A stretch of 64,000 nt of DNA from Escherichia coli (GTDB taxonomy: Bacteria > Pseudomonadota > Gammaproteobacteria > Enterobacterales > Enterobacteriaceae). Under the pieces are notes generated by a model that ran no database searches, was not told the origin of the DNA, and was given only the letters and a program-made list of their open reading frames with translations. Position 1 is the stretch's first letter. Each line of letters begins with the position of its first letter. The stretch lies in the NCBI RefSeq assembly GCF_013122565.1, contig NZ_CP053258.1. One strand, written 5' to 3'. Shown in pieces: positions 18,119 through 22,855 of the stretch. A program made the translations under genes and the position numbers.

Positions 18119-19072
18119 TTATCCTTCAAGGTATTCAAGGTCAAAGTAGTGATAACCAAACTGTTTATCGGCAATGACCGTACGCATTTTTCCACCGGGC
18201 TGAATATGACGGGTTAAATAATCCATACTCAGCGCGGGCGTCAGACAACCGCTTTCTCCGTAATGGGCTACCAGGTCGATAACGCCAGCAGCAGGCCGGG
18301 ACGGCATTTGTCGCCGTTCGCTGAAGGCCATGACATCAATATCCGTAGCATGCTGTGGCGCAGTGCCGGAATGATATTCCCCGCATTGCAGCCTGATGGC
18401 GCTCTCACGCTGGCTGAGAATAAAACAACCCACGCGTTCAACAGATAAATTCACCTCATCAGCACGACGGGGGAATAAACGCTTAGGCGGTTTACCCACA
18501 TCCTCTTCAGAGAATACCAGTACCGGAATTGCCCGATAGGCAGCGCAAATCACCACGTTATCGAATACATCCCAGGCGAGATAATCCTGCGCCATACGCA
18601 GCGCCTGAACGAATGCCTGTTTTTCGCCACGAATTTTGCAAGTCGGCTCAGTTATCGAAAACTTCTTAAGTAAATTCTTGGGAAGCGTATCAATAGTGGC
18701 GATATGCAGCGCACTGGAAATTTTTTCAAACGGACCGGATTCGCCCCAGGAATCGGCATAAATAAATGCCGTGCGCGATTTCATTAACTTCATGCGTTCT
18801 TTAGTCGGCATTTGTTGTAATGCAGAATCGGTCACCTGCTCCATCGCCTCAAGGTAAGGCATATATTGCGGATTACGGATCCGTTCCGGCGCATAAATAT
18901 CGTTCTCAACGCCAAAGCGCTTCAGCCCCCAGCCATTAGCACGGGTGCCATATAATCCTCTTTCGTACATATGTGCTTCCCAGGCGTTGAGCCAGGTCGG
19001 CTGATAAAAATAAAAAATGTCGTCCGGTTCCGTAAGCGCCCAGGAAGACAGGTAGATACTCTTTTCCGTCAT
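18119..19072 (-). CDS. Hypothetical protein, possibly a degenerate thiolase-fold/KS-like accessory subunit.
   Basis: 317 aa, with a 4-nt overlap with the upstream KS. It has weak KS-like blocks (VERVGCFILS, AHYGESGCLTPA) but no recognisable active-site Cys context. Confidence 0.3.
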   Translation of the reverse strand: MTEKSIYLSSWALTEPDDIFYFYQPTWLNAWEAHMYERGLYGTRANGWGLKRFGVENDIYAPERIRNPQYMPYLEAMEQVTDSALQQMPTKERMKLMKSRTAFIYADSWGESGPFEKISSALHIATIDTLPKNLLKKFSITEPTCKIRGEKQAFVQALRMAQDYLAWDVFDNVVICAAYRAIPVLVFSEEDVGKPPKRLFPRRADEVNLSVERVGCFILSQRESAIRLQCGEYHSGTAPQHATDIDVMAFSERRQMPSRPAAGVIDLVAHYGESGCLTPALSMDYLTRHIQPGGKMRTVIADKQFGYHYFDLEYLEG

Positions 19073-20296: not shown

Positions 20297-22855
20297 TTAT
20301 CCCTTAATGACGAACGCGTAGTAGTTGCCGCCTTCCGTTGCGCCAACAAGCAGGACATGGTTCAGCGCAAGTTTCATCGACTGGCGTACAAAATTCACAC
20401 GCTCATCAAAGAATTCCACCGTATTTGGAATCGCAGGTACTGCCTGCTTCTTAATGCAGTCAGTAATCACGGCGAGGTTAAGCAAACCAGCGGCAGAGGC
20501 GACAAAACCAAAGCAAGCGTTGTAGTTCACTACCGGCACCGCCGGGTTTTGCGCAGCGAAGGTGTTGTAAATGGCGTCAATTTCGATACGAGAATGGTCA
20601 TCGCTGCCGTTGCTGGTACCACAGACCAAATCAATATCGCCAGCAGAGATGCCCGCATGCGTAAGGGCGCGTTCAATGGCCAGCGCCATCGACGCGGATT
20701 TTTCTTCCAACAATGAGGCGTCGAAGTAGGTATTACTACATGACTTACCGTAGCCCACCACTTCCGCGAGAACCTCAGCGCCACGCGCCGCAGCCAACTG
20801 TGGATCTTCCAGCAGCAGCATGCAGGCACCCTCGCCCGGAACATAACCCTGCGGATCTTTACCGTAAATTTGATAGTCGCTCGCCTCAGCCGTCATGTGG
20901 ATCTTTTGCGTCACCGCATCCATATACAGCGACATAGACGGGAAGTACTCATCCGCGCCGCCAACCAATACCTGCGGTTGCAGGTTCTGCCGGACGATTT
21001 CATAACCGTAGGTCAGCGCGCCCAGCGCCGAGTTTTCCCCTGTCGCAAGCGTAGTGGTATACCCTTTGATCCCTTCAGAGATCCCGCAGAACGTTGGGAT
21101 CGCATTCATCAGCGAGCCAGGAAATTCCGACGTACGTACTTTGCGTGGATCGGGTTTCAGACTTTGCAGATATTTGTAGGTGGTTTCCTGCGGACCGCGG
21201 GACATCCCCATGATCATGCCCAGCTCATCGCCATCGCGTTTGATTTTACGCTTCGCCTGTTCCAGCGCTTCGGTGAGTGCGATCAGGGCAAACGTGCCGC
21301 CACGGGTCGCTTTACGCTGATCGAAACGACGCAGGTGTTTACGCGGCTCCAGCCCGGAAACCTGGAACGTTTTAAAGTTGCTTGCCGTTTCCGGAAGCGT
21401 AGCGTCGCTGAAGCTGTACTCTTCATCAAACAGCTCGGCAAACTGGTTTGATTCATCCAGCACGGCCAGCAGCTCTTTGGCTTCTTCCAGTGTATCGTCC
21501 GGGAAGGTTACGCTACCCAGTTCAACGTGGTGGTCCTGCGCCCAGATGTTTTCCAGAACCTGGTTGAGCGTGTGGCCTATTGCGGATACTGCACCGACGC
21601 CCGAGATAGCCACACGCTTCGAATCATAGGTACTGACCGGAATGGACGCGGGCTCCATGCTCAGGATCATGCAGCAATTGTTGCCGCCGAAGGCATAGTT
21701 ATTCTTCATGAAGATGTTCACTTTGCGATCGCGAAATTCATTCGGCACATAGTCCAGATCGCAATTCGGGCGTGCCTGGCTGAAATTCAGCGTCGGCAGT
21801 ACGCGGTTGTCCGGCAGTGTTGCCAGACAGGCAATCAGTTCCACAATCCCCGCTGCGCCAATGTTGTGGCCAAAGTAAGATTTGGTGGAGCTCACCAGCA
21901 GTTTATCGTGGTTAGCGAAGACCTTTTTCATTGCCAGCGTTTCGATACGGTCATTGGCTTCGGTACCCGTACCGTGCGCGTTGACGTAATCGATTTGCTC
22001 CGGGGTTACGCCCGCATTTGCCATTGCCTTGTTCATGACCTGCACCGCTCCGCTGGCACGCGGATCTGGCCCGGTTTCATGGAAAGCATCGCAGGAAGTG
22101 GCGTAAGAGAGGATCTCACCATAAATGGTCGCCCCGCGTGCTACGGCGTGCTCATACTCTTCCAGCACGATAGCGCCAGCGCCTTCACCAATCGACATAC
22201 CGGACTGACCCGAGAACGGCGTACAAGTGTCTGGATGCATGACATTCAGTGCGTAGAATCCGGCAAAGGTCGGCAGATAGATGGGCTCGGTACCTACTGC
22301 CAGCATGGTTTTGCTTTTACCATTCTGGATGTAGTCAAAGGCCATCCCCACGGCGTTCGGGCTGGCGGTACACGCGGTCGCCACCAGTTCAACCCCGCCC
22401 TGTAAGCCCAGCAGCGTTGAAACGCTGGAACAACATGATGAGAACGCGCCGGAAAAAAGTGCTTTGCGCAGCGAGAAATCTTCCATGCGCTGTTCGAACA
22501 GCGGTAAAAAGGCCTCTGTACCCGCGGAGGAAACACCGACGATCATGCCTGTTTCTTTGAGAGTGTCACGGCTATCCATCAGGCCGGCCTGACTCAGCGC
22601 ATCTTTACCCACTTTGTAGGCCCAGAGCGCTGCGTTATCCAGTGAATCGATAACATCTTCGTTCAGATCGGAGTATTCAATGTCATGCAACACTTCTGCC
22701 GCACGCGCATTTTCAAACCATTTTGCAAAGCGTTCGCTATCCTTAACGCCATTTTTTTTATTTAATAATGCTTCCCGGAAATCCTGAATATTTTCCGCCA
22801 GTGAGGACAAAATCCCCAGCCCGGTAATAACAACTCTTTTCCTGTTCGTTTTCAT
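20297..22855 (-). CDS. Fused KS - CLF-like didomain protein (852 aa).
   Basis: The N-terminal half has a complete Cys-His-His set (ATACTASPNA, NAHGTGTEAND, KSYFGHNIGAAG). The C-terminal half is KS-like but lacks all three residues (LATGENSALG, GTSNGSDDH, ACFGFVASAAG), as in chain-length factors. Confidence 0.8.
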   Translation of the reverse strand: MKTNRKRVVITGLGILSSLAENIQDFREALLNKKNGVKDSERFAKWFENARAAEVLHDIEYSDLNEDVIDSLDNAALWAYKVGKDALSQAGLMDSRDTLKETGMIVGVSSAGTEAFLPLFEQRMEDFSLRKALFSGAFSSCCSSVSTLLGLQGGVELVATACTASPNAVGMAFDYIQNGKSKTMLAVGTEPIYLPTFAGFYALNVMHPDTCTPFSGQSGMSIGEGAGAIVLEEYEHAVARGATIYGEILSYATSCDAFHETGPDPRASGAVQVMNKAMANAGVTPEQIDYVNAHGTGTEANDRIETLAMKKVFANHDKLLVSSTKSYFGHNIGAAGIVELIACLATLPDNRVLPTLNFSQARPNCDLDYVPNEFRDRKVNIFMKNNYAFGGNNCCMILSMEPASIPVSTYDSKRVAISGVGAVSAIGHTLNQVLENIWAQDHHVELGSVTFPDDTLEEAKELLAVLDESNQFAELFDEEYSFSDATLPETASNFKTFQVSGLEPRKHLRRFDQRKATRGGTFALIALTEALEQAKRKIKRDGDELGMIMGMSRGPQETTYKYLQSLKPDPRKVRTSEFPGSLMNAIPTFCGISEGIKGYTTTLATGENSALGALTYGYEIVRQNLQPQVLVGGADEYFPSMSLYMDAVTQKIHMTAEASDYQIYGKDPQGYVPGEGACMLLLEDPQLAAARGAEVLAEVVGYGKSCSNTYFDASLLEEKSASMALAIERALTHAGISAGDIDLVCGTSNGSDDHSRIEIDAIYNTFAAQNPAVPVVNYNACFGFVASAAGLLNLAVITDCIKKQAVPAIPNTVEFFDERVNFVRQSMKLALNHVLLVGATEGGNYYAFVIKG

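Follow-up and report, generated by a model that had tools for sequence, protein, structure and literature searches.

The window analysed here is a 64,000-nucleotide (nt) stretch of the Escherichia coli contig NZ_CP053258.1 (assembly GCF_013122565.1), and positions are counted from its first letter. An earlier note made from the letters alone had pointed out three open reading frames (ORFs), at 20297-22855 (852 amino acids, aa), 19069-20358 and 18119-19072. Their positions and the motifs quoted for them were recovered exactly; they are encoded on the minus strand, like every operon gene and codon given below. The genes encode an 852-aa protein with two ketosynthase (KS)-like halves, a divergent KS-like enzyme (KS2) and a 317-aa protein (h317). 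Together they provide four thiolase-fold units arranged as two KS/partner pairs, with one acyl carrier protein (ACP), in an operon resembling those of fatty acid synthases (FAS) and type II polyketide synthases (PKS). The earlier estimate had been three or four KS-fold units for a single ACP; four were counted, and the 17 operon proteins scanned against Pfam gave a single PP-binding match, that of the one ACP found. Judged by the features of FabF/FabB-type enzymes, PF00109 and PF02801 were matched by both halves of the fusion and by KS2, and the thiolase fold of h317 was recognized by predicted structure alone. Only the N-terminal half of the fusion has a Cys at the nucleophile elbow (C162), the corresponding residues being Glu607 in the C-terminal half, Ser161 in KS2 and R-G-E-K in h317. 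The set of His, Lys and His is complete in the N-terminal half and changed to T/N/F in the C-terminal half; KS2 has H294 and K324 but Tyr329 in the last place.

The fusion gene (20297-22855) matched the PF00109 and PF02801 domains twice. Its N-terminal half (residues 1-405, 21641-22855) gave Pfam ketoacyl-synt N- and C-domain matches at 8e-52 and 1.5e-47, and phmmer aligned it end to end, catalytic residues included, with Protein Data Bank (PDB) entries at 1.4e-77 (9s5h, chain B) and about 1e-72 (FabF chains). The tetrad C162/H294/K325/H330 (codons 22370-22372, 21974-21976, 21881-21883 and 21866-21868) is that of a canonical FabF-like KS, was invariant in 32 of 32 fusion sequences and was also kept in the distant clusters, as expected from the earlier description of this half as Cys-His-His, with the Lys now added. 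An alignment of the 32 fusion proteins located a linker of about 12-14 residues (..SMEPASIPVSTYDSK..) at 21617-21658, between the final strand of the KS and the strand with which the partner half begins. For the C-terminal KS-like half (20297-21616), residues were mapped in a MAFFT alignment and in a phmmer alignment with the FabF of S. pneumoniae. The catalytic Cys was replaced by Glu607 (LATGENS, codon 21035-21037), the first His by Thr747 (CGTSNGS, 20615-20617), the Lys by Asn779 (20519-20521) and the second His by Phe784 (CFGFV, 20504-20506). The loss of all three catalytic positions claimed for this half was thus confirmed and extends to the Lys, and the reservation that a catalytic Cys might survive in it found no support, there being no Cys at the nucleophile position.

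Within the close clade (n = 32) the Cys position of the C-terminal half was occupied by E in 28 sequences, Q in 3 and A in 1, the first His position by T in 24 and S in 8, and the Lys and second His positions by N and F, respectively, in all 32. Distant relatives carried V, I, T, N or H at the Cys position. With such variation, the position does not hold the conserved catalytic Gln that marks actinorhodin-type chain length factors (CLFs). Searched as a single sequence, the half matched FabF at 6e-21; its family profile did so at about 1e-46 and was closer to FabF than to the actinorhodin CLF (5e-25). Of the covalent KS-CLF fusion proposed earlier, the fusion itself is therefore real, and the term CLF applies solely by analogy of function, with no conserved Gln and a profile nearer to FabF. 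Judged from its sequence, the 852-aa protein is an active-type KS covalently fused to a catalytically dead KS-like half, and by analogy the two halves would form an intramolecular pseudo-heterodimer of the KS/CLF type (pair 1). A sequencing accident does not account for the fusion, because it was found with a length of 840-853 aa and the same short linker in 31 of the 31 related genomes giving a full-length ORF, and distant metagenomic clusters contained eleven further copies of this kind, some clusters carrying two fusions. A word-indexed search with the C-terminal half yielded mostly fragments among the matches listed and was given little weight on the question of split versus fused forms. 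Two other Cys residues of the dead half, C590 and C745, the latter two residues upstream of the lost first His position, were conserved in 32 of 32 close sequences and in 11 of 12 long ORFs from distant loci; the twelfth (393-2981 of locus L042) probably lies outside the family.

The longest ORF for KS2 begins at an ATG at 20358, is 429 aa long and overlaps the fusion gene. The start was assigned instead to a GTG at 20292, because the RefSeq annotation and homologue lengths of 403-411 aa agreed with it; this codon lies 4 nt past the TAA of the fusion gene, behind an AAGGGA Shine-Dalgarno sequence, and gives a protein of 407 aa (19069-20292), to whose form all residue numbers refer. KS2 is a very divergent protein with a full-length KS fold. 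Its Pfam ketoacyl-synt matches were weak (about 5e-13 and 6e-12), it scored far under every curated NCBIfam cutoff, and its AlphaFold2 model (predicted local distance difference test score, pLDDT, 88) showed a full-size KS fold in Foldseek, with a template modelling (TM) score of about 0.8 and 15-20% identity to any solved KS.

The second KS had been read as keeping its Cys within the motif NCTSNSS, and this register turned out to be off by two. HMMER aligned KS2 without gaps to the KS of 6-deoxyerythronolide B synthase (DEBS), TACSSSLVALHLA against CTSNSSLTAVHLA, with the catalytic Cys opposite Ser161, and a MAFFT alignment of 117 KS2 homologues with both fusion halves agreed in placing Ser161 at the nucleophile position. 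Each of Ser161, His294, Lys324 and Tyr329 (codons 19810-19812, 19411-19413, 19321-19323 and 19306-19308) was invariant in 117 of 117 homologues, and Asn162 and Asn296 were also strictly invariant. Cys159 (19816-19818), two residues before the nucleophile position, was present in 106 of the homologues, the remaining 11 having S, G or A instead; S, T or A is also found there in many distant relatives. The AlphaFold2 model has the helix behind the nucleophile starting at residue 163, which fits Ser161 at the elbow. A BLASTP local alignment opens with C162 opposite C159, that is, in the register of the earlier note, which explains the hand alignment made there. The other part of that reading held, as the second His is replaced by Tyr329 (GQIGYT) in 117 of 117 homologues according to both HMMER and MAFFT, and a proper alignment did not bring it back: the His is truly absent.

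The wider KS2 family was assembled from metagenomic loci and from a profile search against 1.84 billion representative proteins. Stand-alone relatives were found at 25-50% identity, most of them retaining Ser-His-Lys-Tyr, and a sister group (P0362 and L044-L047) has Cys-His-Thr-Tyr. The Ser or Cys, the His and the Tyr persist in relatives at only about 25-35% identity. The interchange of Ser and Cys at one position hints at a nucleophile role, and a genuine Cys-His-Tyr site, to judge by the alignments, belongs to the sister clade and not to this window. KS2 itself would not be expected to perform standard thioester Claisen elongation. Two clusters of the sister clade, L045 and L046, carry two KS::partner fusions and a second short-chain dehydrogenase/reductase (SDR).

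No Pfam or NCBIfam match was obtained for h317 (18119-19072, 317 aa). Its AlphaFold2 model, built with 52 homologues, had a pLDDT of 88 and a predicted TM score (pTM) of 0.89 and revealed a compact thiolase fold, in agreement with the earlier suggestion of a degenerate thiolase-fold protein. At the elbow the sequence is R148-G149-E150-K151, which contains neither Cys nor Ser, and the half of the fold that normally bears the His, Lys and His is strongly shortened. The residue at the nucleophile position is E150 or K151, placed to within one residue by a weak hhalign register and the helix starts of the two AlphaFold2 models. The hhalign comparison of the h317 family with the KS2 family gave E = 0.11, and comparison with both fusion-half profiles, global and local, gave nothing usable. 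C145 (of C145-K146) was considered as a relocated nucleophile and dropped, being invariant among close homologues and G or S in distant relatives. From the model, h317 looks like a degenerate, non-catalytic thiolase-fold partner. RefSeq/NCBI records call the protein 'hypothetical' or, for many family members, 'ATP-binding protein', and given the predicted thiolase fold the latter label is probably a misannotation.

The partner of h317 is probably KS2. The stop codon of KS2 and the start codon of h317 overlap as ATGA, which supports the translational coupling noted before, and the stop-start junction fell between -14 and +23 nt in 32 of 33 loci. Each of the 34 genomes carried both genes, and so did each of the 10 metagenomic loci (of 15) with a contig that continues beyond KS2. 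A single representative protein, P0367 (784 aa), is a natural fusion of KS2-like and h317-like domains. P0373, a close relative of P0367, ends after the KS2 part. A 747-aa 'fusion' ORF in locus L043 was rejected as an artefact of overlapping frames (end of KS2 at 3388, start of h317 at 3385), leaving P0367 as the sole KS2::h317 fusion. KS2 and h317 may be expected to form a second heterodimer (pair 2).

The operon was assigned from Pfam, NCBIfam and RefSeq annotation. On the minus strand the order is TpsA, TpsB, AcpS, ketoreductase (KR), dehydratase (DH), ACP, GcvT-like protein, the 852-aa protein, KS2 and h317, followed by an ABC ATPase, a 218-aa protein, a MacB/FtsX-type permease, a LolA-like protein, a 462-aa protein, a FabD-like protein and YcdU. 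At the 5' end, a two-partner secretion (TPS) pair is formed by an FHA-like TpsA of 1270 aa (27847-31659) and an FhaC/ShlB-like TpsB (26139-27758), with Pfam TPS, Fil_haemagg, ShlB and POTRA matches. It is followed by an AcpS-type phosphopantetheinyl transferase (PPTase, 25755-26123), an SDR ketoreductase (24980-25741) and a FabZ-like dehydratase of 182 aa (24428-24976), all by Pfam and RefSeq annotation, and by the 93-aa ACP with its LDSVD motif (24125-24406; Pfam PP-binding). The next gene (22929-24089) encodes a GcvT-like aminomethyltransferase of the folate-binding T-protein family (Pfam GCV_T, 3.7e-33), which matched the NCBIfam GcvT model at 1.3e-39, under the cutoff. Beyond h317, the same annotation sources identified the ABC ATPase (17401-18108), the MacB/FtsX-type permease (15450-16760), the LolA-like protein (14653-15441), the FabD-like malonyl transferase (12313-13257), in which the GHSVGE, Arg and His motifs were seen by sequence reading, and the membrane protein YcdU (11330-12316). 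Pfam revealed no enoyl reductase (ER), thioesterase, adenylating enzyme, FabH, hydroxymethylglutaryl (HMG) synthase or enoyl-CoA hydratase (ECH) among the 17 operon proteins; no CoA ligase was seen either, and the FabD-like protein was the sole acyltransferase. A promoter and terminator scan returned sites no more frequently than in shuffled sequence. The dehydratase matched the FabA/FabZ profiles over residues 17-82 only; as its other 100 residues matched no profile, it may be an atypical hot-dog protein.

The identical order of 17 genes from TpsA to YcdU was found in 34 species genomes, from Enterobacter, Kosakonia, Mixta, Klebsiella, Rahnella, Serratia, Buttiauxella, Izhakiella, a Neisseria sp. 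and an Acinetobacter sp. Distant metagenomic clusters shared the core AcpS-KR-DH-ACP-GcvT-KS::partner-KS2-h317-ABC-LolA-FabD, without the TPS pair. In every cluster, close or distant, whose contig reaches there, the GcvT-like gene is the direct upstream neighbour of the fusion gene, even at 30-40% identity. As judged from gene order and sequence conservation, the two KS pairs and the GcvT-like gene appear to form the conserved centre of a family of gene clusters that is as yet uncharacterised. A T-protein homologue beside a KS fusion does not fit any known logic of FAS or PKS systems. In the close clade the TPS pair was linked to the lipid genes in essentially all 34 genomes, that is, in every close locus reaching that far, and here only 15 nt separate the TpsB stop from the acpS start. 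This linkage suggests a functional coupling of the exoprotein with the lipid pathway in the close clade.

Among 5426 complete E. coli genomes, 382 contain the 4.7-kb stretch of the three KS-like genes at 95% identity or above, and 381 (about 7%) were counted as carrying the operon. In O157:H7 EDL933 (NZ_CP008957), KS2 and h317 lie at 1,447,728-1,449,901 with 98.5% identity. O-island 47 (OI-47) of this strain spans 1,420,969-1,452,695 (z1528-z1556; PMC8565820), and the position of the two genes within these limits means that the operon belongs to OI-47 of E. coli. Strains with the OI-47 operon include E. coli O157:H7, O55:H7 and O145:H28. In the recent reviews covered, the regulator GrvA is the sole OI-47 product credited as characterised.

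The arrangement was compared with known systems. Like the type II KS-CLF pairs of actinorhodin (1tqy), ishigamide (Iga11/Iga12, 6kxd) and AntD/AntE (6smo), pair 1 combines a Cys-His-His KS with a Cys-less KS-fold partner, and the operon provides a dedicated ACP, malonyl transferase and PPTase. It differs from them in that pair 1 is one polypeptide rather than two, in 31 related genomes and the distant loci, in that the partner lacks the conserved Gln and has a profile nearer to FabF than to the actinorhodin CLF, and in the presence of a second pair whose 'KS' is Ser-His-Tyr. The two separate chains of PDB 9s5h, entered as '3-oxoacyl-(acyl-carrier-protein) synthase', may represent a related heteromeric KS pair: chain B was the best solved match of the N-terminal half and chain C matched the profile of the dead half (2e-41), whereas in pair 1 the two are fused.

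Joining KS and CLF in one chain is not new, the PfaC didomain of a polyunsaturated fatty acid (PUFA) synthase (PDB 6riw) being a solved precedent. In PfaC the didomain belongs to a larger protein of several domains, DH domains among them, and pfaA/B/D/E genes accompany it. Here the 852-aa didomain, which is likened to 6riw by description, stands alone among discrete KR, DH, ACP and FabD proteins of type II style, and no pfa-type genes were seen in the cluster by Pfam and RefSeq annotation.

Aryl polyene (APE) clusters (ApeO-ApeC and ApeR; PDB 7F28 and 7F27; PMC8358021) offer another likeness, being FAS-like systems of Gram-negative bacteria with a KS/CLF pair and an extra KS. KR and DH without an ER, and a LolA-like export component, are further common features, and the N-terminal half of the fusion matched ApeR (7f27) at 3.9e-53 by phmmer. 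In place of ApeR, however, the second KS here is Ser-His-Tyr and has its own degenerate partner; moreover, the KS/CLF pair is fused, a GcvT-like enzyme belongs to the core, and the exporter is an ABC system of the MacB/FtsX type. APE clusters also contain genes for aryl-starter activation, a thioesterase, acyl- and glycosyltransferases and an MMPL exporter; in the operon, Pfam detected neither an adenylating or aryl-starter enzyme nor a thioesterase, nor a glycosyl- or lysophospholipid acyltransferase, nor an MMPL exporter.

KS2 by itself resembles the KS0/KS-DC enzymes PksF, CurC and MupG, which are free-standing FabF-like KSs unable to condense and have the nucleophilic Cys replaced, as by Ser161 in KS2. 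These three enzymes have Ser for Cys and keep both His residues. In contrast, KS2 has Tyr329 for the second His and a dedicated truncated partner, and the HMG synthase and ECH1/ECH2 domains of KS0 cassettes were not found by Pfam in the 17 operon proteins.

In the scheme that we propose for the operon, pair 1 is the probable elongating enzyme and would carry out iterative malonyl-ACP condensations on the ACP. KR and DH would leave the chain unsaturated unless host FabI acts, and since both are present and the operon encodes no ER, an acyl-ACP with an unsaturated or polyene chain is the probable product, which would then be moved to the outer membrane via the Lol-like exporter. Pair 2 is tentatively assigned, with somewhat less than even confidence, as a non-elongating initiation module acting by decarboxylative priming. 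KS2:h317 would generate acetyl-ACP from malonyl-ACP by decarboxylation; the oxyanion hole for the enolate would consist of His294 and the hydroxyl of Tyr329, and the acetyl-ACP would prime pair 1. Pair 2 would in this way do the job of the Gln in classical CLFs and KSQ domains and of KS0 in beta-branching cassettes. Conversion of the KS Cys to Gln yields a malonyl decarboxylase (PMC9006962), and stand-alone, condensation-incompetent KS0 enzymes decarboxylate malonyl-ACP to acetyl-ACP in beta-branching cassettes (PMC11522927). Priming by pair 2 is favoured by the lack of a Gln in the fused partner (Glu, or V/I/T in distant relatives) and by the Pfam scan, which showed no other starter-supplying enzyme; the FabD-like motifs fit malonyl as the sole loaded unit.

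Several points weigh against this assignment. The second His is needed for decarboxylation in FabB/FabF-type enzymes, and in KS2 it is a Tyr. A pure decarboxylase has no obvious need for a dedicated CLF-like partner. The Cys found in the sister clade at the position of Ser161 suggests an acyl-enzyme nucleophile and so favours acyl transfer or a priming KS instead. The always-adjacent GcvT-like gene has no place in any scheme and could change the whole of it, and host FabI could reduce the enoyl intermediates, so that a polyene product is not assured. Finally, a literature search on OI-47, ycdU, 9S5H and the combination of aminomethyltransferase and ketosynthase gave no functional study of the operon and no biochemistry.

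The properties of pair 2 could also be explained by an acyl-enzyme, the main alternative, which we regard as possible but doubtful. KS2:h317 would then use Ser161 as nucleophile to form an oxyester, and h317, like a CLF, would give the acyl-binding tunnel its shape. The enzyme would be either a priming KS, comparable to DpsC, which is a Ser-dependent KSIII, or a chain-release acyltransferase acting from the ACP to a lipid or protein acceptor. An invariant Ser161 with Cys in its place in the sister clade is the usual pattern of a nucleophile, a dedicated and conserved CLF-like partner would find its use, and some protein must off-load the chain when Pfam shows no thioesterase and no acyltransferase but FabD. 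The transferase could instead be YcdU or one of the uncharacterised operon proteins, however, and no acceptor is identifiable. Oxyester intermediates are, moreover, poor Claisen substrates in FabF-type sites, and the likeness to DpsC is to a member of a different (KSIII) subfamily. Extended further, KS2:h317 would be a new catalytic class of the thiolase superfamily that works through acyl-O-Ser in a non-Claisen reaction, for example the transfer of an unsaturated chain to an acceptor, and would together with the GcvT-like enzyme make an undescribed outer-membrane lipid, in Enterobacterales maybe as a lipid modification or cofactor of TpsA. We consider this extension unlikely.

It is more unlikely still, in our view, that pair 2 is catalytically inert and has a structural or regulatory role, whether as a scaffold, in docking or chaperoning the ACP, or in gauging chain length for the fused KS. 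Such a role would agree with the absence of the Cys and one His from KS2 and of all catalytic residues from h317, and with an extreme divergence that leaves KS2 at 15-20% identity to active KSs and the h317-KS2 hhalign comparison at E = 0.11. It is hard to reconcile with the invariance of Ser161, Asn162, His294, Asn296, Lys324 and Tyr329 in 117 homologues and with the retention of the Ser or Cys, the His and the Tyr at about 25-35% identity, which argue for a selected active site and no relic. A condensing enzyme with a Cys-His-Tyr triad using Cys159 of NCTSNSS is very improbable, since that Cys two residues ahead of the elbow, despite its presence in 106 of 117 homologues, the opening of the BLASTP alignment at C162 and C159 and the true Cys-His-Tyr relatives in the sister clade, gives way to S/G/A in 11 close and to S/T/A in many distant homologues while Ser161 is invariant in 117 of 117 close ones, and HMMER with the DEBS KS, MAFFT and the AlphaFold2 helix from residue 163 all point to Ser161.

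The operon encodes the whole of a dedicated pathway for a lipid or polyketide, export machinery included. It departs from the textbook in its stand-alone fused KS::partner, in a strictly conserved Ser-His-Tyr KS-like enzyme and in a previously unclassified shrunken thiolase-fold partner; as far as the literature was searched, a Ser-His-Lys-Tyr KS family with such a partner is undescribed. The role of pair 2 would show how type II-like initiation or release proceeds without a CLF glutamine, FabH or thioesterase, and work on it could bring to light a new surface lipid of an important pathogen. The anatomy is firm and the chemistry directly testable; the residues and proteins to be targeted are now defined.

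The surroundings of the operon gave some minor observations. The remaining part of OI-47 in the window, at about 33000-42900, contains a chaperone-usher fimbrial operon, an SDR, a winged-helix ToxR-like regulator, which is probably GrvA, and an EAL-domain protein. Just past ycdU (9050-11051) lie a tyrosine integrase and an IS200C transposase, and beyond these come inovirus Gp2-like genes, an IS1 element and a TOTE-system primase pseudogene, a mosaic island edge unlike the K-12 context. In K-12, the ymdE pseudogene and ycdU, which correspond to 11330-13257 of the window, are apparently the leftover 3' end of the operon. The ymdE gene is described as an IS3-truncated gene with acyltransferase-like domains, and the ymdE/ycdU pair as enriched in bovine-mastitis strains of phylogroup A (PMC4951805). 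The full-length ymdE of 945 bp has the same length as the FabD-like gene at 12313-13257.

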